A stretch of DNA of 64,000 bases from Roseomonas sp. (GCA_031180725.1 JAPSLO010000008.1:127471-191470), one strand, 5' to 3'. Counted from the first letter of the stretch, positions 27,694 through 42,225 are shown. Notes: generated by a model not told the origin, from the sequence alone. Numbers and translations are program-made.

Positions 27694-29322
27694 TTAGCGC
27701 CGCTCGCAACCTTCGCGGAACCAGCGGAAGCCGTGGCCTTCCAGCCGCAGCGGCCGATCCGCGGTTTCCGGCGCGTCATCGGCCGCGTCCGTCAGCAGGC
27801 GGCGAAGCGGACCGGTTTCGGGTGGCAGGCGCAGTTCCGCCGGCGCATCGGCAAGGTTGTGCAGCGTCAGCACTGCCGCACCCTGCCATTCGGACCGCAG
27901 CGCCAGCACGGTGGGCGCGCCAACATCCAGCACCTTGCAGACGCCCCAGCCGATCTCCGGACAGGCGCGGCGGGTATCCACGACCCGGCGGCAATGTTCC
28001 AGCAGCGAGCCGTGGCGGTTCCGCTGCGCCGCCACATTCACGCGCTGGAAGCCAAACTGCGCATCACTGACGACGGGCCGCACCAGGCGCCCGGGCGGCG
28101 CGGTGGAGAAGCCGGCATTCGCCTCCTCGTTCCACTGCATCGGCGTTCGCACCGGCCAGCGCTCGGGCTGGGAGAGATCCTCGCCCATGCCGATCTCCTC
28201 GCCGTACCAGATCACCGGCGTGCCGGGCAGCGCGAACATCAGGCTCTGCGCCATGGCAATGCGCCGCGTATCGCCGCCGAGCATCGGCGCCAGCCTTCGA
28301 CGGATGCCGCGCCCGAACGCCTGCATCCGCGGCTCCGGCCCGAAGGCGGCAAAGACCTCCGCGCGTTCTGCCTCACCCAGGCGGCCGAGGTCGAGCTCGT
28401 CATGGTTGCGCAGGAAGGTGCCCCACTGGCCAATCAGCGGCAGCTTCGGCGACTGGCGCAGCACACGCTCCACCGGCTCCGCCTGGCCACGCGCCAGGGC
28501 CAGGAAGACATGCTGGTTCAGCATGAAGTTGAAGATCATCTGCAGCCGCTCGCCGCTGCCGAAATAGGCCTCGGCATCCTTCATCTCGATATTGGCTTCC
28601 GCCAGCAGCACCGATTCCGCCTCGCGCCAGCTCAGGAAGTTCCGCAGCTCGACCAGGTAGCGATAGGGGTCACGCAGGTCCTCAGGCGGTTTGACGCCGC
28701 GGTGTTCGATCAGGAAGGGCACGGCATCCAGGCGGAAGCCAGTGGCGCCCAGTTGCAGCCAGAAGCCCATGATGCGCTCGATCTCCTCGCGCACCTCGGG
28801 GTTGGTGATGTTCAGGTCGGGCTGGTGCTTGAAGAAGCGGTGCATGTACCAGGCGCCCGCCACCTCATCCCAGGTCCAGGTACTCTCCTGCACGCCGGGG
28901 AAGACCATGCCTTCATGCAGGTCCTTCGGCTGCTCCTTCGACCAGACATACCAGTCGCGGCGCGGCGAGCCGGGCTGACGCGCGTCCTGGAACCAGGGAT
29001 GGTCCACCGAAGTGTGGTTGACGACCAGGTCCAGGATGATACGCAGCCCCCGGTCGCGCGCCGCGCGAGTGAACTCCACGAAATCGCCCAGCGTGCCGAA
29101 GCGCGGATCCACGCCGTAGTAGTCGGTGATGTCATAGCCGTTGTCGCGGTTCGGCGAGGGATAGAAGGGCAGCAGCCACAGGCAGGTGGCGCCGAGGGCC
29201 TCGATATGGTCCAGCCGATGCGCCAGTCCGCGGAAATCGCCAATGCCGTCCCCGTTCGAGTCCATGAAGGTCTCGACGTCCAGGCAGTAGATGACCGCGT
29301 TCTTGTACCAGAGATCGATCAT
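27694..29322 (-). CDS. GH13 trehalose synthase (TreS)-like protein
   Basis: WYKNAVIY, DNGYDITDY, FRLDAVP, LLAEAN and FLRNHDELDL motifs. Confidence 0.88.
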   Translation of the reverse strand: MIDLWYKNAVIYCLDVETFMDSNGDGIGDFRGLAHRLDHIEALGATCLWLLPFYPSPNRDNGYDITDYYGVDPRFGTLGDFVEFTRAARDRGLRIILDLVVNHTSVDHPWFQDARQPGSPRRDWYVWSKEQPKDLHEGMVFPGVQESTWTWDEVAGAWYMHRFFKHQPDLNITNPEVREEIERIMGFWLQLGATGFRLDAVPFLIEHRGVKPPEDLRDPYRYLVELRNFLSWREAESVLLAEANIEMKDAEAYFGSGERLQMIFNFMLNQHVFLALARGQAEPVERVLRQSPKLPLIGQWGTFLRNHDELDLGRLGEAERAEVFAAFGPEPRMQAFGRGIRRRLAPMLGGDTRRIAMAQSLMFALPGTPVIWYGEEIGMGEDLSQPERWPVRTPMQWNEEANAGFSTAPPGRLVRPVVSDAQFGFQRVNVAAQRNRHGSLLEHCRRVVDTRRACPEIGWGVCKVLDVGAPTVLALRSEWQGAAVLTLHNLADAPAELRLPPETGPLRRLLTDAADDAPETADRPLRLEGHGFRWFREGCERR

Positions 29323-29348
29323 GCCGCGCGTCCCGGTATTCCGCGCCG

Positions 29349-29373
29349 AACGGGCGCCGACGCTCGCGGTTGC
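29349..29373 (-). promoter_or_regulatory. sigma-EcfG-like promoter GCAAC-N16-CGTT
   Basis: The -10 element ends about 27 nt upstream of the treS-like ATG. Confidence 0.6.
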
Positions 29374-29381
29374 AACGGGGT

Positions 29382-30401
29382 TCAGTGCCGCCGCAGCAGC
29401 CGGCGCGACAGGGCGATTACCGCCGGCACCGCGAGGGCCAACGCCGCCGCGCTGCGCAGCAGCGCAGGGTCCACTGCCGCCACGCGCGCCCGCGCCATGG
29501 CATCGAAGCGTCCATGGACGGCATGACCGCCATGAACGGGCGCGAAGAGGTTGTCCGGCCGCCCGGGCGTGACGGGCTCGGCCGCCATCTGCCCCTCATA
29601 GCCCTGCTTGGCCAGCAGATGGTCGACAAGCCCCGGCGCGAGCATGTCGGCCAGAATGGCGCGGAGGCTCGGCCCGCCCACCCAGAGCTCCCGCGGCGCG
29701 GTTTCCGCCGCCCGGCAAACCGCTTCAGCCACGGCTTCCGGCTGGTACACCGGCGGCACCGGCTGGGCACGGCGCGGCATGAGGCTGCGCGCCCAGTCAA
29801 ACTGCGGTGTGTTCACCGCGGGCAGTTGCACCATGGTGAGCCGAATGCGGCTGCCATCATGGCGCAATTCGCTACGCAGCGAATCCGTGAAGCCGCGGAT
29901 GGCGAACTTCGCGCCGCAGTAGGCGGATTGCAGCGGAATGGCGCGATAGGCCAGCGCCGAACCTACCTGGACGATGGTGCCCCTGTTCACCGGGCGCATG
30001 TGCCGCAGCGCCGCCATGGTGCCGTGGACATAGCCCAGATAGGTCACCTCGGTGACTCGGCGGAATTCCTCGGGCGTGATCTGTGCGAAAGGCGCGAAGA
30101 CCGTCACCATCGCGTTGTTCACCCAGAGGTCGATGCCGCCGAGTTCTGCCGCCAGCCGGTCCGCCGCCGCGAACAGTGCCTCCGGATCGGCGACATCGGC
30201 GGGTGCGGTGCGGACCTCGGGCGCGCCGGAGGCCTGGGCGTCATGGCCGGCGGCTGCTAGCGCCTCCGCATCCCGGGCGATCAGGCCCAGCCGCCAACCC
30301 CGGCGACCAAGCGCCGCCGCGATGGCGCGACCCATACCGGCCGAGGCGCCGGTCACCACGGCCGCCCGGCCCGGTTCCCTGCGCGGGACAGTCTCGCTCA
30401 T
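29382..30401 (-). CDS. SDR family oxidoreductase
   Basis: TGASAGMG, WVNNA and YCGAK motifs with a C-terminal hydrophobic tail. Start MSETVP at 30401. Confidence 0.92.
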   Translation of the reverse strand: MSETVPRREPGRAAVVTGASAGMGRAIAAALGRRGWRLGLIARDAEALAAAGHDAQASGAPEVRTAPADVADPEALFAAADRLAAELGGIDLWVNNAMVTVFAPFAQITPEEFRRVTEVTYLGYVHGTMAALRHMRPVNRGTIVQVGSALAYRAIPLQSAYCGAKFAIRGFTDSLRSELRHDGSRIRLTMVQLPAVNTPQFDWARSLMPRRAQPVPPVYQPEAVAEAVCRAAETAPRELWVGGPSLRAILADMLAPGLVDHLLAKQGYEGQMAAEPVTPGRPDNLFAPVHGGHAVHGRFDAMARARVAAVDPALLRSAAALALAVPAVIALSRRLLRRH

Positions 30402-30426
30402 CGCGTCTTTCCACACCTGTCCCGGA

Positions 30427-30451
30427 AACAGCCGGAACTGCAGGCGGTTCC
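30427..30451 (-). promoter_or_regulatory. sigma-EcfG-like promoter GGAAC-N16-TGTT
   Basis: Perfect -35, with the -10 ending about 26 nt upstream of the SDR ATG. Confidence 0.65.
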
Positions 30452-30531
30452 AACCCGGGCGCGCCGCATGCGACCGCCCCCCCTCTTCAGACCAAACCAA
30501 GCTGGCTGGTCCCGCTCCAAGCGCGATGGTA

Positions 30532-30552
30532 TAGTAACCGTCATGGTTACTA
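30532..30552. promoter_or_regulatory. palindrome TAGTAACC-GTCAT-GGTTACTA, candidate operator
   Basis: Perfect 8-bp inverted repeat overlapping a TATAGT -10-like hexamer (30530-30535). Confidence 0.45.
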
Positions 30553-30704
30553 CACGTCGCAATGGCCGCCGCTGCGGTCAGTCGGCCCGAAGCTGACCGC
30601 CGAAGATGGCGCATTCCAGCCGCAACGGCCCACCGTTGGCGCCGGCCACACCGGCCGGCAACCCGAGACTACGGAGACTGCCCGGAAGGTGGCCGGCTGC
30701 GGCT

Positions 30705-31067
30705 CTAGGCCGCCTGCCGGCAGATCCGGCCGAGCATGGATGTCAGCTCCGCCGGGTCATAGGGCTTGGCCAGCACCGGCGCGTTCTGATGCCCAACCGG
30801 CAGGCCGGAAGCGCCATAGCCCGTCGCGATTACATACGGGATGCCGCGTGCCGCCAACGCATCGGCAACCGGCGCCGAGGTTTCCCCGGCCAGGTTGAGG
30901 TCGAGCACCACGGCATCGGGCTTCTCCCGCGCGAGGAGCGCCATCGCTTCCTCCACCGTGGCAGCCGGTCCCACTACGCCGAAGCCCGCATCCAACAGCG
31001 CATCCTCGACGAGCATCGCAACCAGCGCCTCGTCCTCGACGACCAGGACCTTGCGCCCTTCAGTCAT
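30705..31067 (-). CDS. single-domain response regulator (receiver only)
   Basis: VLVVEDE, phospho-Asp in VVLDLNL, PYVIATGY and LAKPY. Confidence 0.93.
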   Translation of the reverse strand: MTEGRKVLVVEDEALVAMLVEDALLDAGFGVVGPAATVEEAMALLAREKPDAVVLDLNLAGETSAPVADALAARGIPYVIATGYGASGLPVGHQNAPVLAKPYDPAELTSMLGRICRQAA

Positions 31068-31516
31068 ATCGAACTCCCCTCGCCAGATTGCGAGGTCCCA
31101 GCAATAACCCGGGACCGTGTCTGCCACCGCTCACATTCTCGCGTGACAGCGCCTTTTCTTGCCTGTTTAGAAACCCAGGGTATTACCCCGGCCCGCCATC
31201 GGGGAGCCACCCAAGCCCGCGCGCGGCGGGGTCCGGCAGCCGTCATCACCCGCACCGGCGCCAAGCGATAGAACGCGCCCTCATAGGCCGCAAGGCGGGC
31301 AAAGGCGCCATCATCCAGGAAGGGCAGCAGAAACCCCGCAACCTCCCCGGTCGAAGCAACCAGGGTAGGATACGGCGTGCCCCGCAGCACAACCCGTGCA
31401 TGGCCCGGCAGGCGCGCCAGCGACGCCCGGCGCCAAGCCCGCTGCCCGGCGAAGCGGGCAAGGACCCGCCGGTCCAGCAATGTCCCGTAGAGGAAAAGCG
31501 GCCCGACTCGGGCCAT
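31064..31516 (-). CDS. gamma-glutamylcyclotransferase (AIG2-like) family protein
   Basis: LFLYGTLL, YPTL, GEVAG and LAAYEG motifs. The C-terminal ~30 aa look non-conserved. Confidence 0.8.
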   Translation of the reverse strand: MARVGPLFLYGTLLDRRVLARFAGQRAWRRASLARLPGHARVVLRGTPYPTLVASTGEVAGFLLPFLDDGAFARLAAYEGAFYRLAPVRVMTAAGPRRARAWVAPRWRAGVIPWVSKQARKGAVTRECERWQTRSRVIAGTSQSGEGSSI

Positions 31517-31582
31517 GGCGTTGGTCCCGGCAGCGCCTGGGAGAGCGCCCGTGGCCCCGAACAGGCGCCACGGGCGGCGGCT

Positions 31583-32995
31583 TCAGTGACCGGCGTTCTC
31601 GCCCGAGAAGTCGGGCGCCTTGAGCCCGGAGGCCTCGACCTGCCGGGCAATCTGCACCTTCAGCCGCTCCAGCCCCTCGGCATTCCGGGCCTCGGCACGA
31701 GCCACCAGCACCGCCTGGGTGTTGGAGGCACGCAACAGCCACCACCCATCCTCGGTCAGCACGCGCACGCCATCCACGTCCTGCACCTTGGCGCCTTCCT
31801 GGGCCAGGCGGGCCTTCACTTCCTGGATGACCTCGAACTTGCGCGTGTCGGGACAGTCGAAGCGCAGCTCCGGCGTGTTGATCACCTGCGGCAGCGCGGC
31901 GCGGATGGCGGAGAGCTTCTCCGGGCTGCGGGCGATGATGCCCAGCAGACGCACCGCGGAATAGGGCGCATCGTCGAAGCCGTACCACTTGTCGGCGAAG
32001 AAGATGTGGCCGGACATCTCGCCCGCCAGCGGGCTGCCGGTCTCGGCCATCTTCGCCTTGATCAGCGAGTGGCCGGTCTTCCACATCAACGGTGTGCCGC
32101 CGGCCTTCGCCACCTCGTCGAACAGCACCTGGCTGGCCTTCACATCGGCGATGATGGTGCCGCCCGGCTTCGCCTTCAGCACGTCGCGCGCCAGCACCAC
32201 CAGAAGCTGATCGCCGAACAGGATATGGCCTTCGTTGTCCACCACGCCGATGCGGTCGCCGTCGCCATCGAAGGCGATGCCGAGATCGGCCCCCTGCTGC
32301 GCCACCTCTGCGATGATCTGTTCCAGGTTCTTTGCCACCGTGGGGTCGGGGTGGTGCGCCGGGAAGGTGCCATCGATGGTGCCGTTGATGACATAATGCG
32401 TGCCGGGCAGCCTCGCGACGATCTTCTTGATGATCTCGGCCGAGCTGCCATTGCCCGGATCCCAAACCACCTTCAGGGCGCGGTCGCCGCCGTCCCAGTC
32501 CTGCAGGATGCGCGCCACATACTGGTCCGCCACATCCACTTCCCGGTCGGTGCCGGTCGCGGTGGGCACCACATCGCCCGCAGCCGCCATGCGGCCGATC
32601 TCCTGGATCTGCTTCCCGAAGAAGGGCTTCTTACCTAGCATCATCTTGAAGCCGTTGTAGCTCGGCGGGTTATGGCTGCCCGTCACCATCGCCGCGCCAT
32701 CGGCTTCCAGCGCATAGGCGGCATAGTAGAGCATCGGCGTCGGGCAGCAGCCGACGCGCAGCACTTCCAGCCCGCAGGCGCGCAGCCCGGCGACCAGTTG
32801 CGCCTCCAGCTCCGGCGAGGAAAGCCGGCCATCATAGCCCACCGCCACGCGCTTGCCACCGCCACGGCTGACGATGGAGCCGAAGCAGCGGCCGATCGCG
32901 AAGGCGTCCTCCGGCCGCAGCGTCTGGCCCACGATGCCGCGGATGTCGTATTCGCGCAGCGAAGTCGGGTCGAACTCGTGGTGGAAGGCGGTCAT
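31583..32995 (-). CDS. phosphomannomutase/phosphoglucomutase
   Basis: REYDIRG, TGSHNP, FDGDGDR, GEMSGH and RASNT motifs. Confidence 0.96.
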
Positions 32996-33021
32996 CGCTC
33001 TGTCTTCTCCCGGCTCGCGGA

Positions 33022-33891
33022 TCAGGCGTATTTCTTCAGGATCTTCTGCATTGCCGGCGCCATGTCCTCCCGTGCCAGGGCGAAGGCGACCTGGGCTTCC
33101 AGGTAGCCGGCCTTATCGCCGCAGTCGAAGCGGCGGCCCTCATAGCGCACGCCGTGGAAGGGCTGGCTGCCGATCAGCTTCGCCATGCTGTCCGTCAGTT
33201 GGATCTCGCCGCCCGCGCCCTTCTCCATCTTGGAAAGGTGGCCGATCACTTCCGGCATCAGCACATAACGGCCAATGACGGTCAGGTTGCTGGGCGCCTT
33301 CTCCGCCGGCGGCTTCTCCACCAGGCCGGTCACCTCCACCAGATTGCCCCTGGTGGCACCCGGCGCGATGACGCCGTAGCGGGAGACGTGCTCCATCGGC
33401 ACTTCCTCGATCGCCACCACATTGCCGCCGGTGGCTTCGTAGGCTTCCGCGAGCTGCTTCGTGCAGGACACCTCGCAGAGCATCAGGTCGTCCGGCAGCA
33501 GGATGGCGAAGGGGTCGTCGCCAATGAAGGCGCGCGCGCACCAGATGGCGTGGCCAAGGCCCAGCGGCACCTGCTGGCGGGTGGAGATGATGGAGCCCGG
33601 CGGCAGCGCCTGGGCCTGCAGCATCGCCAGTTCCTTCTGCTTGTTGCGCTCCACCAGCGTGCGTTCCAGCTCGTAGGCGACGTCGAACTGATCCACCAGC
33701 ATGGTCTTGCCGCGGCCGGTGACGAAGCAGAACTGCTCGATGCCGGCGGCGCGCGCTTCCTCCACCGCGTACTGGATCAACGGTTTGTCCACCACGGGCA
33801 ACATTTCCTTGGCGAGCTGCTTGGTGGCCGGCAGGAAGCGGGTGCCAAGGCCGGCAACGGGAAGCACGGCCTTGCGAAGCGGCTTGGGCAC
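33022..33891 (-). CDS. galU: UTP--glucose-1-phosphate uridylyltransferase
   Basis: [33 protein letters not shown] and DCG motifs. GTG start at 33891. Confidence 0.96.
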
Positions 33892-34029
33892 GAGCGATAG
33901 ACCCCTGAAGCTGTCGGTGGCGAAAGGAGTGCCACGGACCGGGTTTAGCGTCCACCGCCGGCCCGGTATCCCCCCCTGACGCTTCAACAATGGAGGACTT
34001 CGCGCCAAGGCCGGCATGTCATCGCTCTG

Positions 34030-35459: not shown

Positions 35460-37736
<2,277 letters not shown>

Positions 37737-37820
37737 CCAAGGTGCTCCCCTTTCGGGGCACATCTTAGGCGAGAGTGGCCCGGGTGGCGACCATTGGGCC
37801 TACGAAGCGCTGTCGCGGTC

Positions 37821-40800
37821 TCACGCCGTCGAGGGCGGCTCCCACGGCATTTCGTAGCCGTACTCCAGACAATAGGCTTCCAGTCCCGCCAGCAAAGTGG
37901 GCTCCAGGCCCAGCCAGTCCTCGACTGCGAGATTCGGCTTGGAAACGCTGAAGCGACGCGCCCCCTCGGTCGAGTTGTAGCCCTTCACCCCTTCGGCGTT
38001 GGGCGCTCCAGCAAGATCAGACCGCCACCACTCGGCAAGCCATAGCCGGACCGGGCGCTCGGCATCCTCCACCCGGAAGACAGCATCCGGCGCCAGTCTC
38101 ATCGCCATGGTATGCCAGTGCAGGAACGAGGAGACGGCCCGCCCGATCGCCGTGCGGTGGCGTGCAATATCCTCACCAGTGGCGAGTAGGATATGCAGGC
38201 GGCGGAAATTGAACGACGGGACAATCCCATTCTCCAGCACGATAGAGGGGATCGCATCCCGCGGGTCACGCACATGCACCACTGTTTTTCTGAAGTCGGT
38301 GTTATAGCTGGCGTTATCGCCATAGGGCATGTGCAAGTCCGTGACGACATGCATCCAACTGGAGATGCCGTCGGCCAGCAGTTTCTCGTGCCCGACCTGC
38401 AATCCATAGGCGTTGAACAAGGTCGCCATGTATCCGGAGGCACAGCGGGGGTGGCCAACAACGCGCAGCATTCGGCGCTGGCGCGGGACGTCCGCCAGGG
38501 CTCGAACATCCTCCTCAGTCGCGATATTGCGCCGACCGTCGCCGCTGGAGCGCACCAGAGGCATGGATGCAGCTATAGGCTCAAGGCGCTGTGCGTCCTC
38601 CAGCCCATGGTCCTGGATCAGCGTGCAGCCCAGGGTGTATCGGCCGCCCCTTTCCAGGAGGTAGTCGCGAGTCTCAAAGCCCATCCAGTAATCGGCTACG
38701 CTTCCGATGTCGAGCCCGATCCCCCCACGCTCGCGGATCAAGTCACAATAGATTTTGCCCAGAAAGCCCGCCGCAACGAGATAAACTTCCCCTGGCTGCG
38801 GTGCCAGCGCATTGCAGATATCTTCATGGTGGTCCAGCAAGGTCCCTGGCGCAGCATCTTGTATGCCGCCCCCGAATAGAGGGGCATAACGCTGTTCCGG
38901 CGGCACCAGGATGGCTTGGCGTGTGGCTACACCGTGTTCCTTCCACAGGTACGGTGCGAGGTCATGACACGAGATCCAGGAGACTGACCGCACGACAGAA
39001 AGCACTTCGCCCCACAAATTCCACACGTGCAGGTCGTGATGGAAATGAGCAGAAGTGATGAGGCGCTCGCCCTCACGCAGGTGCTCCGCAGCATGACGCA
39101 GCACGCGCACAAGACCGCGGCCGGCAGTACGGACTTGGCTGCTGTTGGTCGATTGGCGGAAGAAGCGCCAGAGTGGAATAACTCCCACAACGTCCGCCCG
39201 CGCTACGGCCTTCCTGAAGCTAGCTTCGACTATGCCAGTTTGCGTAGCGTCTAGGCGCCGATCGCCCCACCAGGTGAACTGAATTGTTGCGCGGTCCAGA
39301 GCGACCTCTTCCGCTGATTCATCCGGCCGGGCCAGAAAGTGTCCCTCGCCATCACCCAGACGCAGCGCCGAGGTCGGTTGCCCCTCCCGGATACGCCTCA
39401 ACAGTACTGCAGCCAGATCCACGGCATCAGAGAAAAGATCCGCGGTGTGTAGCAGGACTGTTGGTGGTCCGCGGTCAATGCGGCGCAGGCAGTCCAAGCC
39501 CTCAGCGAGCCATGGCGCGGGATCGGAGCCGCTCGGCTCGATAACCTGCGCCTCCGCTTCTACGCAGCGCAGCGCCTCCGCCTCGATACGGCGCGCTGCC
39601 TCCGCACGGCTGGCGCGAAATACCGTGAAGGAGACTGGCCTGACCACCGCACTCTCGACCCGCTGTACCTCCAGCGAACGGGTGACGATCAACGCCAACT
39701 GCACCGCTGTGATGCCACGCACCGTCTTGATGGCCTTATGCGCTGCTTGCGCGGCATCGGCATCTAGAGAAACGCGCCGCAAGGAGGAAAGGAAGCGAGA
39801 CTTCTGCCTGCCGTCCGGCAGGGTCACGGCGTGGCGGAGCATGCTGGGCAATTCGGCCAAGTCCCAAGCCGAGGGCACAATGCCGAGCATGAAATTCACC
39901 GCGATTCGCGACGGTACTGTTGCCTGCAATGCTGCACGCGCCTCCGCCAGGCCCGGAGTATCGTTCAGCCGTCGCAGGACTGTGAAGAGCTGCTCCCAAA
40001 GTCTCTGGTTGGAGGGGAAGCTGACCAGAGAACGCCGGACGACCGCCACCGCGCGCCGACTCTCGCTCTGATCAGCAAGGATTCCACACACCTGTTCCGC
40101 AGCAGCCGCCGTCAGTGTCCGGCTCTCGATCTGCCGGAGTACGCCGGCCAGGGCCGTCCGGTTCAGCAAGCAGGCCCAGTGCGCCCGCAAGATGGCCGGG
40201 CCAAGCTTCAGGAGGTTGGCGGCACCTGCTGGTGTAGCTAGCCAGCACTCGACACGACGCAGCAAGCCTTCGAGCAGGTCACCGCGTCGTGTCGCGGCGG
40301 CAGCTCGCGCGAGTTGGCGCACAAACTCCGCTTCATCCAGAACGCCTTCCAATGCCTGCAGGTGATGCAGCCCCTCCTCTTCCGCCCCCCGGGCCTGCAG
40401 AAGATTGACACGTACGAGTTCCACCGCGGTCCGCAGGGAGGGTTCACCGCGGCCGACGGCCTCGGCCATCAGCCGCTCGCAGGATTGGAAGTCCCCGGTG
40501 GCGATCAAGCCCTGGGCGAGAGAAGAGAAGACGCCGGTTACCCCTTCGTTCCAGAGCTCGGTACGCAACGCTGTAGCGGCCGCATGATCGCCGACGCGGG
40601 CTAAGGCAGCAGCCTCCCGCCGACGCACCGGCGGCGCACTGGGATTGACTTCCCGCACCGCGCGTATCAGCCGCAGGGCCTCCTGCTCCAAGCCGAGCTC
40701 CAGACGCGCCACGGCGGCGGCCATGGCGGCAGGCACTGGAAGGTGGGACGGGCTTGAACAGCCCTGGGCACGCAGCAGTGCGTCCTCCAGACCCAGCATG

Positions 40801-41306
40801 CCGAGCCAGTTTTCGGTCACCTCGTACATGCGCTGCAGAGTCATGGGGTCAGTCGTGGGATCGGCCTCGGCCACCCGCACCTGCACCAAGGCAGCGTCAA
40901 CATCGGCGCGTTCCATCGCGGCCTCGACACTGTTGGCGCGCACCCGCAGGTTGAGGCTCGTAAGGCGATCCCAATTATCCGCGGAGTCCGGGTGATGTGT
41001 TCGGGCTTGCCGTAGCAAATCGGCGCCCATCTCCGCGTCACCTATGTCGTGGGCGGCGCGGATCGCCAAAGTGAAGATGTGGGGCGGCAGTGGTTTCCGA
41101 GCAAATTGTGGGGCACATGCGGCACGACGGAAGGCGTCCGCGACGGCGATGGCTTCGCCGGCCTGCAGCGCCTCTCGCATGAGGCGCGCCAACTCACCTG
41201 GGAAAATGCGTGGCCCGGAGACTGCGCCCTGTAGGGCTGAAATCAGACCGTTCCGAGAAGGATCTTGAGGCAAGACCAAACGAGGGCCCAATTCGTGTTG
41301 GTCCAT
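37821..41306 (-). CDS. large multidomain protein: TPR-like repeats + GT-D-fold-like domain + sulfotransferase-like domain
   Basis: Uninterrupted 1161-aa ORF with a helical repeat N-terminus. Central motifs are SALRLGDGEG and LVAAGFLGKIYC...GLDIGS. C-terminal motifs are VVGHPRCASG, VGHE...GISSW, VRDPRDAIPS and EYGY. Codon usage is visibly less GC3-biased than in neighbouring genes. Confidence 0.75.
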   Translation of the reverse strand: MDQHELGPRLVLPQDPSRNGLISALQGAVSGPRIFPGELARLMREALQAGEAIAVADAFRRAACAPQFARKPLPPHIFTLAIRAAHDIGDAEMGADLLRQARTHHPDSADNWDRLTSLNLRVRANSVEAAMERADVDAALVQVRVAEADPTTDPMTLQRMYEVTENWLGMLGLEDALLRAQGCSSPSHLPVPAAMAAAVARLELGLEQEALRLIRAVREVNPSAPPVRRREAAALARVGDHAAATALRTELWNEGVTGVFSSLAQGLIATGDFQSCERLMAEAVGRGEPSLRTAVELVRVNLLQARGAEEEGLHHLQALEGVLDEAEFVRQLARAAAATRRGDLLEGLLRRVECWLATPAGAANLLKLGPAILRAHWACLLNRTALAGVLRQIESRTLTAAAAEQVCGILADQSESRRAVAVVRRSLVSFPSNQRLWEQLFTVLRRLNDTPGLAEARAALQATVPSRIAVNFMLGIVPSAWDLAELPSMLRHAVTLPDGRQKSRFLSSLRRVSLDADAAQAAHKAIKTVRGITAVQLALIVTRSLEVQRVESAVVRPVSFTVFRASRAEAARRIEAEALRCVEAEAQVIEPSGSDPAPWLAEGLDCLRRIDRGPPTVLLHTADLFSDAVDLAAVLLRRIREGQPTSALRLGDGEGHFLARPDESAEEVALDRATIQFTWWGDRRLDATQTGIVEASFRKAVARADVVGVIPLWRFFRQSTNSSQVRTAGRGLVRVLRHAAEHLREGERLITSAHFHHDLHVWNLWGEVLSVVRSVSWISCHDLAPYLWKEHGVATRQAILVPPEQRYAPLFGGGIQDAAPGTLLDHHEDICNALAPQPGEVYLVAAGFLGKIYCDLIRERGGIGLDIGSVADYWMGFETRDYLLERGGRYTLGCTLIQDHGLEDAQRLEPIAASMPLVRSSGDGRRNIATEEDVRALADVPRQRRMLRVVGHPRCASGYMATLFNAYGLQVGHEKLLADGISSWMHVVTDLHMPYGDNASYNTDFRKTVVHVRDPRDAIPSIVLENGIVPSFNFRRLHILLATGEDIARHRTAIGRAVSSFLHWHTMAMRLAPDAVFRVEDAERPVRLWLAEWWRSDLAGAPNAEGVKGYNSTEGARRFSVSKPNLAVEDWLGLEPTLLAGLEAYCLEYGYEMPWEPPSTA

Positions 41307-41417
41307 GCCCTAACAAAATCCCCCTACACGACTGCTGCGGGACGGCAGCAGTCCTGTCCCAGGGACGTGCCGCGTCAGCGCTCAGCTGAGGTCTACCGAC
41401 GTCGGTTATCATGGACT

Positions 41418-41503
41418 TGGTGCGGTCGAGAAGATTCGAACTTCCACGGGGTTGCCCCCACCAGCACCTCAAGCTGGCGCGTCTACCATTCCGCCACGAC
41501 CGC
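41418..41503 (-). tRNA. tRNA-Leu(GAG)
   Basis: GCGGTCGTGGCGGAATGGTAGACGCGCCAGCTTGAGGTGCTGG...TTCGAATCTTCTCGACCGCACCA folds as a cloverleaf with a long variable arm, anticodon GAG and encoded CCA. Confidence 0.98.
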
Positions 41504-41522: not shown

Positions 41523-41551
41523 CCTATAACCCATGACCGACGCCCCGACAA
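41523..41551 (-). promoter_or_regulatory. sigma70 promoter of tRNA-Leu
   Basis: TTGTCG-N17-TATAGG followed by a GC-rich discriminator-like CGCGCCC. Confidence 0.65.
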
Positions 41552-42225
41552 CTCTGCCCCCGGCGCTTTCCGCCACTCCCTCCCCCGGCCCGCGATGGAT
41601 CGCGGCACCCGGATTGACCCCCTATGAGGAGGCGATCGCCGCAATGGAGGCGCGGGTGGCGGGCATCCGCGCGGGGACGGCGGAGGAGGCGGTCTGGCTG
41701 GTGGAGCACCCGCCGACCTACACCGCCGGGACCTCCGCCCGGCCGGAGGACCTGCTGGAGAAGCGCTTTCCCGCCGTCGCCGCGGGACGTGGCGGGCAAT
41801 GGACCTATCACGGGCCGGGCCAGCGGACGGCCTATGTGATGCTGGACCTGACCCGGCCGCACGGCACAGTGCGGGCGCGGGATGTGCGCGCCTATGTCCA
41901 TGGGCTGGAGGAGTGGCTGATCCGCGCGCTGGACCGCTTCAACATCAAGGGCGAGCGGCGCGAGGGCCGGGTGGGCATCTGGGTGGCCGACCGCGCCCGG
42001 GGCACGGAGGACAAGATCGGCGCCATCGGCGTGCGCGTGACCCGCTGGGTGAGCTGGCACGGGGTGGCGCTGAACGTGGACCCCGACCTGAGCCATTTCG
42101 GCGGCATCGTGCCCTGCGGCATCGCCCAGCATGGGGTGACCAGCCTTCAAAGGCTGGGCGTGCTGGCGACGATGGAGGAAGCCGACAGCGCGCTGATGGC
42201 CGCCTGGGCAGAGGTATTCGGCTGA
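41533..42225 (+). CDS. lipB: lipoyl(octanoyl) transferase
   Basis: [29 protein letters not shown] and HGVALN...IVPCGI motifs. Confidence 0.96.

Follow-up and report, generated by a model that had tools for sequence, protein, structure and literature searches.

A single gene of Roseomonas sp. joins a TPR-like arm to GT-D-like and sulfotransferase-like domains

The stretch of DNA analysed here (the window) comprises 64,000 nucleotides from Roseomonas sp. (GCA_031180725.1 JAPSLO010000008.1:127471-191470) and carries on its minus strand a long open reading frame (ORF) at positions 37821-41306, the subject of this study. The gene lies between maeB, coding for malic enzyme with a phosphotransacetylase (PTA) domain (35460-37736, minus strand), and the divergently oriented lipB, coding for lipoyl(octanoyl) transferase (41533-42225, plus strand). 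Its product is composed of three parts, all encoded on the minus strand: an N-terminal helical arm of about 600 amino acids that resembles tetratricopeptide repeats (TPR; 39507-41306), a middle domain related to glycosyltransferases (GT) of the GT-D fold (residues ~615-900; 38607-39464) and a C-terminal sulfotransferase-like domain (residues ~940-1155; 37842-38489). The latter has neither a Pfam nor an NCBIfam annotation and is called domain X in the following.

Translation of the minus strand confirmed the frame given in the preliminary description, which is free of stop codons over 1161 codons. All motif strings quoted there were found where it had placed them: SALRLGDGEG (residues 646-655), ADVVGV, LVAAGFLGKIYC and GLDIGSVAD in the middle region, VGHPRCASG, GHE...GISSW, VRDPRDAIPS and the terminal EYGY in the C-terminal region. 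The start codon is uncertain, since a second, sequence-identical copy called from an independent public assembly (P0002) begins at M43 (41178-41180), which gives a product of 1119 amino acids. With a maximum Kyte-Doolittle mean of 1.39 over 19 residues the protein has no hydrophobic segment and hence no predicted transmembrane segment, so that it is expected to be soluble and cytoplasmic. A search with residues 600-1161 against 5.8 billion clustered proteins revealed 48 relatives, of which approximately 37 span both C-terminal domains with identities of 31-62%; homologues of the protein occur in cyanobacteria. Over 31 homologues the residues D652, R954, H973, E974, W984, R1013 and S1021 are invariant, and E654 is present in at least 90%. 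Due to this conservation the motifs cannot be chance strings. Two paralogous genes of the same architecture were also observed within one metagenome-assembled genome of the Caulobacteraceae (L011, L012).

The fold of the C-terminal half could not be read from sequence searches of the PDB, where neither the complete sequence nor either of the two domain profiles returned more than noise; a comparison of predicted folds was therefore needed. For the middle domain a GT-D fold had been proposed beforehand, and it was recovered on both routes that were taken. The isolated residues 615-925 match the Pfam model PF22882 ('GT-D-like') with 30.7 bits (cut-off 27), the whole protein scoring slightly under this cut-off with 26.0 bits, and the model is matched by 30 of 30 aligned homologues with a best E-value of 5e-13. 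The AlphaFold2 (AF2) model of the domain (predicted local distance difference test, pLDDT, 83.8; predicted template modelling score, pTM, 0.86) retrieved in Foldseek the DUF1792 GT-D crystal structures 4phr, 4pfx and 5v4a on ranks 1-3 with probabilities of 0.97-1.0. GT-D enzymes are characterised by a Mn2+-binding DxE motif (PMC9804384), which is conserved here as D652-G-E654 (39345-39353, minus strand). The stricter DUF1792 models were not matched by the 1161-aa protein (PF08759 without any match; NF040628 with 12.6 bits where 75 are required). In the relative P0099 the first half of the domain matches PF22882 and the second half PF08759 (27.8 bits), and by these profile matches the protein bridges the two families. 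Taken from sequence and model, the middle domain is predicted to have the GT-D fold with the GT-D metal site and would act as a glycosyltransferase.

Domain X is not matched by any Pfam, NCBIfam or PADLOC model, and its relatives are named 'hypothetical protein' in the source databases. The sulfotransferase fold that had been suggested for it was nevertheless retrieved with the AF2 model (pLDDT 91.4, pTM 0.90): the best 49 PDB matches in Foldseek are all sulfotransferases that use 3'-phosphoadenosine-5'-phosphosulfate (PAPS), namely SULTs, StaL, CurM-ST, TPST and NST, with probabilities up to 0.97. In addition, a profile of 143 X sequences was aligned by hhalign with a profile of 13 Sulfotransfer_3 sequences, a GT-D alignment serving as control. 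The global alignment reached 94.9% (E 1e-8) and the local one 88.3% (E 3e-6), compared to 0.3-0.8% in the controls; the global alignment places the 5'-phosphosulfate-binding (PSB) motif over PSB and the 3'-phosphate-binding (PB) motif over PB, the PSB of X falling on the PRSGT loop of Sulfotransfer_3 and the R and S of its PB on their counterparts. Three features mark the sulfotransferase superfamily (PMC11625862): the PSB motif is a strand-loop-helix that contains Lys or Arg, the PB motif is a strand-turn-helix that contains Ser (RxxxDxxxS), and the fold has a central sheet. Both motifs can be located in domain X. The PSB-type element GHPRCASGY (38430-38456, minus strand) bears R954 where the catalytic Lys or Arg is expected, and in the AF2 secondary structure the loop GHPR954CA connects strand 943-950 with helix 957-966. 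R1013-D-P-R-D1017-A-I-P-S1021 (38244-38270, minus strand) shows the PB pattern, with R1013, D1017 and S1021 where strand 1003-1012 passes into helix 1015-1025. The near-invariant pair H973-E974 (38385-38390, minus strand) is a candidate for the catalytic base. Among the 143 copies of X, R954 is retained in 139, H973 in 135, E974 in 141, R1013 in 141 and S1021 in 137, W984 falls within the range of 135-143, and in total about 20 polar residues are near-invariant.

The PSB loop RCASG had been called divergent. Its Cys is unusual, and Ala stands in the place of Gly. The consensus over the 143 copies is G-H-P-R-[C/T/S]-G, two family members carry a canonical PRSGT or PRTGT loop, PRSGT has the same length as the RCASG loop, and the active enzyme Stf0 likewise combines Arg with Ala in the PSB (PMC11625862). 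Two Pfam-significant Sulfotransfer_3 proteins are encoded in the same Roseomonas genome (G000:C9:175412-175954, L101; G000:C8:720428-721096, L098), one of them with a GRCGST loop. This loop is the same R-C-G-S/T variant as in the X consensus. Since fold, PSB and PB motifs and profile alignment agree, we assign X, on sequence and model, to the sulfotransferase superfamily, of which it is a divergent member as far as fold and cofactor motifs are concerned. PAPS should be available in the cell, since a check of the genome for PAPS synthesis found an adenosine 5'-phosphosulfate (APS) kinase (PF01583, 234.5 bits) within a CysN/C-like frame of 666 amino acids.

The N-terminal arm had been described as about 600 amino acids of TPR-like repeats. 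In the 1161-aa protein itself the Pfam TPR matches (TPR_14, TPR_15) stay below threshold (E 0.38-0.91), whereas most homologues have clear TPRs, with significant TPR_14 in 21 of 31 family members and TPR_19 in 19 of 31 (E down to 1e-16 to 1e-18; 2.8e-16 as the best value for the 21 members). From the matches across the family the arm is probably a TPR-type solenoid which, judged by its sequence, is degenerate in the protein studied here.

To define the distribution of domain X, its profile was searched over 1.84 billion representatives clustered at 50% identity. The family comprises 1997 proteins at E ≤1e-3 and 208 at E ≤1e-30, spread over Alpha-, Beta- and Gammaproteobacteria, Cyanobacteria and Bacteroidota. 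Classification of 170 X-bearing proteins gave 74 with a GT-D-like domain, 47 with a GT25 domain, 41 of at most 300 amino acids and 8 others, so that in 121 of 170 X immediately follows a domain of the GT-D-like or GT25 type. The seemingly stand-alone proteins of at most 300 amino acids may be fragments; most of them come from contigs 1-2 kb long, and a member of 1124 amino acids falls into at least one of their clusters. Giant forms occur as well, such as GT25+X+Sulfotransfer_3+GT2+GT4 (P0092, 2183 amino acids), Stealth+TPR+GT-D-like+X and X+NKWYS. The locus of P0092 (L133) also has a gene for an OGT-like GT41 enzyme and a type IV pilin gene close by.

The neighbourhood of the GT25+X genes was investigated in metagenomes, which were scanned with a 9-sequence alignment; 80 loci were fetched, and the neighbours were clustered for 25 loci, namely 24 of the 80 with a near-full-length match and, in addition, L131. 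Recurrent neighbours in these 25 loci are Sulfotransfer_2 (6), Sulfotransfer_3-type proteins (7; the representative reaches 24.3 bits, under the cut-off of 27), TPR+Sulfotransfer_3 proteins (4) and sulfatases (3), besides GT4 and the Wzt ABC-transporter ATPase. A canonical-type sulfotransferase is encoded within 10 kb in at least 13 of 25 loci, the 3 sulfatase loci being among these 13. In L131 the GT25+X gene is surrounded by a full Wzm/Wzt ABC-transporter polysaccharide cluster with GT2, GT4, methyltransferase and Sulfotransfer_2 genes. Given this richness in sulfotransferases, X presumably works in sulfated-glycan pathways, whose clusters typically contain several sulfotransferases, as does the synechan xss cluster (PMC8205485). 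In three related loci (L154, L155 and L160) sulfatase and Sulfotransfer_2 genes adjoin the GT25+X gene, a pairing that may point to a sulfated glycan being turned over or edited.

In the Roseomonas genome the gene appears as an addition to an otherwise conserved region. At least ten congeners have lipB and maeB side by side in divergent orientation, and in the five that were aligned base by base the spacer between them is ~50-200 bp long and non-homologous. The homology to congeners ends at 37736 and resumes at 41418, leaving in the divergent intergenic region a segment without counterpart (37737-41417), i.e. ~3.7 kb of extra sequence with this gene only. Domain X occurs once in the 5.69-Mb genome; 24 species genomes of the genus and 16 further genomes of the class lack it. 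The GC content at third codon positions (GC3) of the gene is 0.709 compared to 0.86-0.91 in six neighbouring genes, and the 38-40 kb bin of the window has a lowered GC content of 0.624. Several of the homologous copies are situated among transposases; at the junctions of the Roseomonas segment no direct or inverted repeat of at least 8 nt was found. From its sequence context we interpret the gene as recently acquired by horizontal transfer and inserted on its own between lipB and maeB.

Direct support is available for the intact frame, the folds, the conserved motifs, the repeated occurrence of X fused behind a glycosyltransferase, the link to sulfation loci, the PAPS supply and the insertion. 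For the function we propose, with roughly an even chance of being correct, a three-module soluble enzyme, horizontally acquired as a single gene, in which the TPR arm docks, the GT-D module glycosylates and X sulfates. That the protein adds a sugar and subsequently sulfates it is inferred by us from sequence and predicted structure, and the same is true of the two activities, of donors and acceptor, and of the reaction order. In module 1, the arm of ~600 amino acids would dock the enzyme onto an acceptor or partner, the acceptor most likely being a protein as with other soluble TPR-glycosyltransferases. Module 2 would be a metal-dependent Leloir glycosyltransferase with Mn2+ at the DxE motif that glycosylates the acceptor with a nucleotide sugar as donor. 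As module 3, domain X would then pass the sulfate of PAPS, provided by the CysN/C-type APS kinase of the genome, to the sugar just added or to a neighbouring glycan. In this step R954 in the PSB loop could stabilise the leaving 5'-phosphate, R1013 and S1021 could bind the 3'-phosphate, and H973 or E974 might serve as base. A protein acceptor is slightly favoured over a glycan by analogy, because the enzyme is predicted to be soluble, its TPR arm is long, the gene spreads as an orphan, and FlmG sets a precedent: in Caulobacter its TPR arm binds the protein substrate, and the enzyme O-glycosylates flagellins (PMC7591256).

Several findings speak against this proposal. No conserved neighbour or substrate gene exists in 18 loci of TPR-GT-D-X homologues, and in its other architectures X sits in polysaccharide loci, not in protein-glycosylation loci. 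The Foldseek scores are weak for both the middle domain (E ~1e-2, TM 0.35-0.47) and X (E 4e-3 or worse, TM 0.26-0.40). None of the curated sulfotransferase hidden Markov models (HMMs; PF00685, PF03567, PF13469, PF09037 and others) is significant on X, the best result being PF13469 with E 0.012 in 3 of 30 homologues, the local hhalign match is limited to a PSB segment of 28 columns, and 111 of 143 X copies have an unusual conserved Cys in the PSB loop. Moreover, X is often accompanied by a canonical sulfotransferase in the same protein (P0092) or the same locus, and could therefore do something other than sulfation. As regards the acceptor, the domain assignments could stay unchanged if it were a surface glycan, such as an intermediate of lipopolysaccharide (LPS), capsule or exopolysaccharide (EPS) at the cytoplasmic face, and the TPR arm served for scaffolding or oligomerisation, as is the case in multi-domain capsule polymerases. 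We consider this a realistic though lesser possibility. It would fit the occurrence of X in the Wzm/Wzt cluster with GT2, GT4, methyltransferase and Sulfotransfer_2, the fusions of X to Stealth beside a Wzy_C gene and to the capsular NKWYS domain, and the prominence of TPR domains that is reported for capsule-polymerising enzymes (PMC11666461). Genes for a phosphoglucomutase/phosphomannomutase (PGM/PMM) and a nucleotidyltransferase are also present in the window at a distance of 4-6 kb. Their GC3 is native, however, and hence they lie outside the insertion; the gene came alone, without a cluster, and in the 18 loci no polysaccharide export or assembly genes are found near the TPR-GT-D-X genes.

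The remaining counterarguments concern X itself, which might be sulfotransferase-like in fold only and be a kinase or phosphotransferase, another 3'-phospho-nucleotide transferase, or a non-catalytic nucleotide- or glycan-binding regulator of the adjacent glycosyltransferase. The lack of a curated HMM match, TM scores of only 0.3-0.4 and the conserved Cys, together with the Ala that replaces Gly in the 1161-aa protein, would be in line with this, and canonical sulfotransferase domains or genes alongside make X look redundant. On the other hand, the loop PR(C/S/T)G(S/T) is of the PSB type and unlike Walker-A GxxxxGK(S/T), RCGST is found in the significant Sulfotransfer_3 protein of the own genome, and a PSB with Arg and Ala is active in Stf0 (PMC11625862). 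The 3'-phosphate motif RxxxDxxxS is retained (R in 141 and S in 137 of 143 copies), the ~20 near-invariant polar residues argue for catalysis, and multiple sulfotransferases are typical of sulfated-glycan clusters such as synechan xss (PMC8205485). Taking both sides together, we regard a role other than sulfation as unlikely. Still far less probable is a decaying or silent passenger without function in the host, as could be supposed from the atypical GC3 of 0.71, the absence from 24 congeneric species genomes and the degenerate TPR repeats. Against it stand a frame of 3.5 kb that is intact in a genome of 70% GC, the retention of every family-invariant residue, and the identical protein obtained in an independent assembly of a public sequencing run.

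The preliminary description knew of no characterised protein with this architecture, and our literature search agrees: no characterised TPR + GT-D + sulfotransferase protein and no paper on domain X were found. Closest to the middle domain are the DUF1792/GT-D domains of dGT1 (Streptococcus parasanguinis 4PFX and 4PHR; S. sanguinis 5V4A), which have the same fold with the DxE motif close to the domain N-terminus. Both dGT1 and the 1161-aa protein are soluble and cytoplasmic, the latter by prediction, with the GT-D domain fused to a second modifying domain. In contrast to dGT1, where the partner is a GT-A domain, the partners here are the TPR arm and the sulfotransferase-like domain; the identity is 12-14% only, PF22882 is matched instead of PF08759, and no locus for serine-rich repeat protein (SRRP) and accessory Sec (aSec) export is present at the gene. 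Domain X shares with Sulfotransfer_3 (NodH-like) and Stf0 the PSB with Arg and the RxxxDxxxS PB motif, with a profile match to the Sulfotransfer_3 type and an Arg/Ala PSB as in Stf0. It differs from them by staying under every curated HMM threshold, by its compact size of ~215 amino acids, by a signature of its own (HPRCG(S/T)xY, GHE, SW, EN, FRRxH) and by being almost always fused behind a glycosyltransferase. In the synechan xss system of Synechocystis glycosyltransferases and PAPS sulfotransferases are likewise combined for a sulfated glycan (PMC8205485), but as separate enzymes in a large cluster with export machinery, whereas a single orphan fusion gene is present here.

FlmG is soluble and joins an N-terminal TPR substrate arm to a C-terminal glycosyltransferase (PMC7591256), which offers an analogy for module 1 aiming module 2. 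It lacks a sulfotransferase module, and its gene stands in a flagellin-glycosylation context. Membership in the FlmG type was rejected, as FlmG is described as a GT-B enzyme (PMC7591256) and PF22882 was unmatched in the Caulobacter control genome; no paper linking FlmG with GT-D was found, and no flagellar or nonulosonic-acid genes are located near the gene or at the homologue loci. An anti-phage defence system was rejected as well, since PADLOC gave no match. In Caenimonas aquaedulcis the homologue (L002 13495-20205) adjoins a gene for an FG-GAP/HemolysinCabind (RTX-like) protein of 2236 amino acids with 22% Ser+Thr and an ABC exporter nearby. This neighbour could be a substrate in Caenimonas; an adjacent giant adhesin as general substrate was discarded, because the arrangement is seen in the Caenimonas locus only and not in the other loci.

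Both catalytic folds are known. The novelty lies in a sulfotransferase-like family that lacks annotation, in the way it is coupled to glycosyltransferases and in the mobile single-gene form. With the exception of cyanobacteria, of rhizobial Nod factors and LPS and of the sulfolipids of mycobacteria, sulfation of glycans is regarded as rare in bacteria. This view arises partly because sulfotransferase HMMs are skewed to animal enzymes (PMC11625862). We tentatively suggest that X forms a large unannotated family of sulfotransferases physically coupled to glycosyltransferases, and that the TPR-GT-D-X proteins are self-contained glyco-sulfation enzymes which place a sulfated sugar on protein. If so, sulfated glycoconjugates would be much commoner in bacteria than the annotation suggests, and TPR-GT-D-X could spread as a single gene because no local pathway genes would be needed. 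This compact domain, which current Pfam and NCBIfam models miss, lies in sulfotransferase-rich loci and is joined to GT-D-like or GT25 glycosyltransferases across hundreds of lineages; it would provide a handle for finding sulfated bacterial glycoconjugates. The single-gene form is a potential one-enzyme tool for glyco-sulfation and is readily testable.

Some minor observations were made on the flanks and in the wider family. The long maeB ORF starts at 37763, which is an overshoot; judged by the sequence MDEDFRK and by the homologous sequence of congeners, the true start is probably the Met codon at 37734-37736. The 84-bp spacer between the stop codon of the fusion gene and maeB (37737-37820) contains, without a T-run, a GC-rich hairpin that reads GTGCCCCGAAAGGGGAGCAC on the minus strand. 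Downstream of maeB (27694-34017) follows a run of sugar-metabolism genes for an alpha-amylase-family enzyme, a short-chain dehydrogenase/reductase (SDR), the PGM/PMM and the nucleotidyltransferase, which due to its native codon usage and GC3 is assigned to the region outside the insertion. In the GT25+X proteins the GT25 half bears an invariant FPPCFRCGK..C (C69, C72 and C77; residues ~67-77 of P0077), and this Cys cluster may be a metal-binding insertion.

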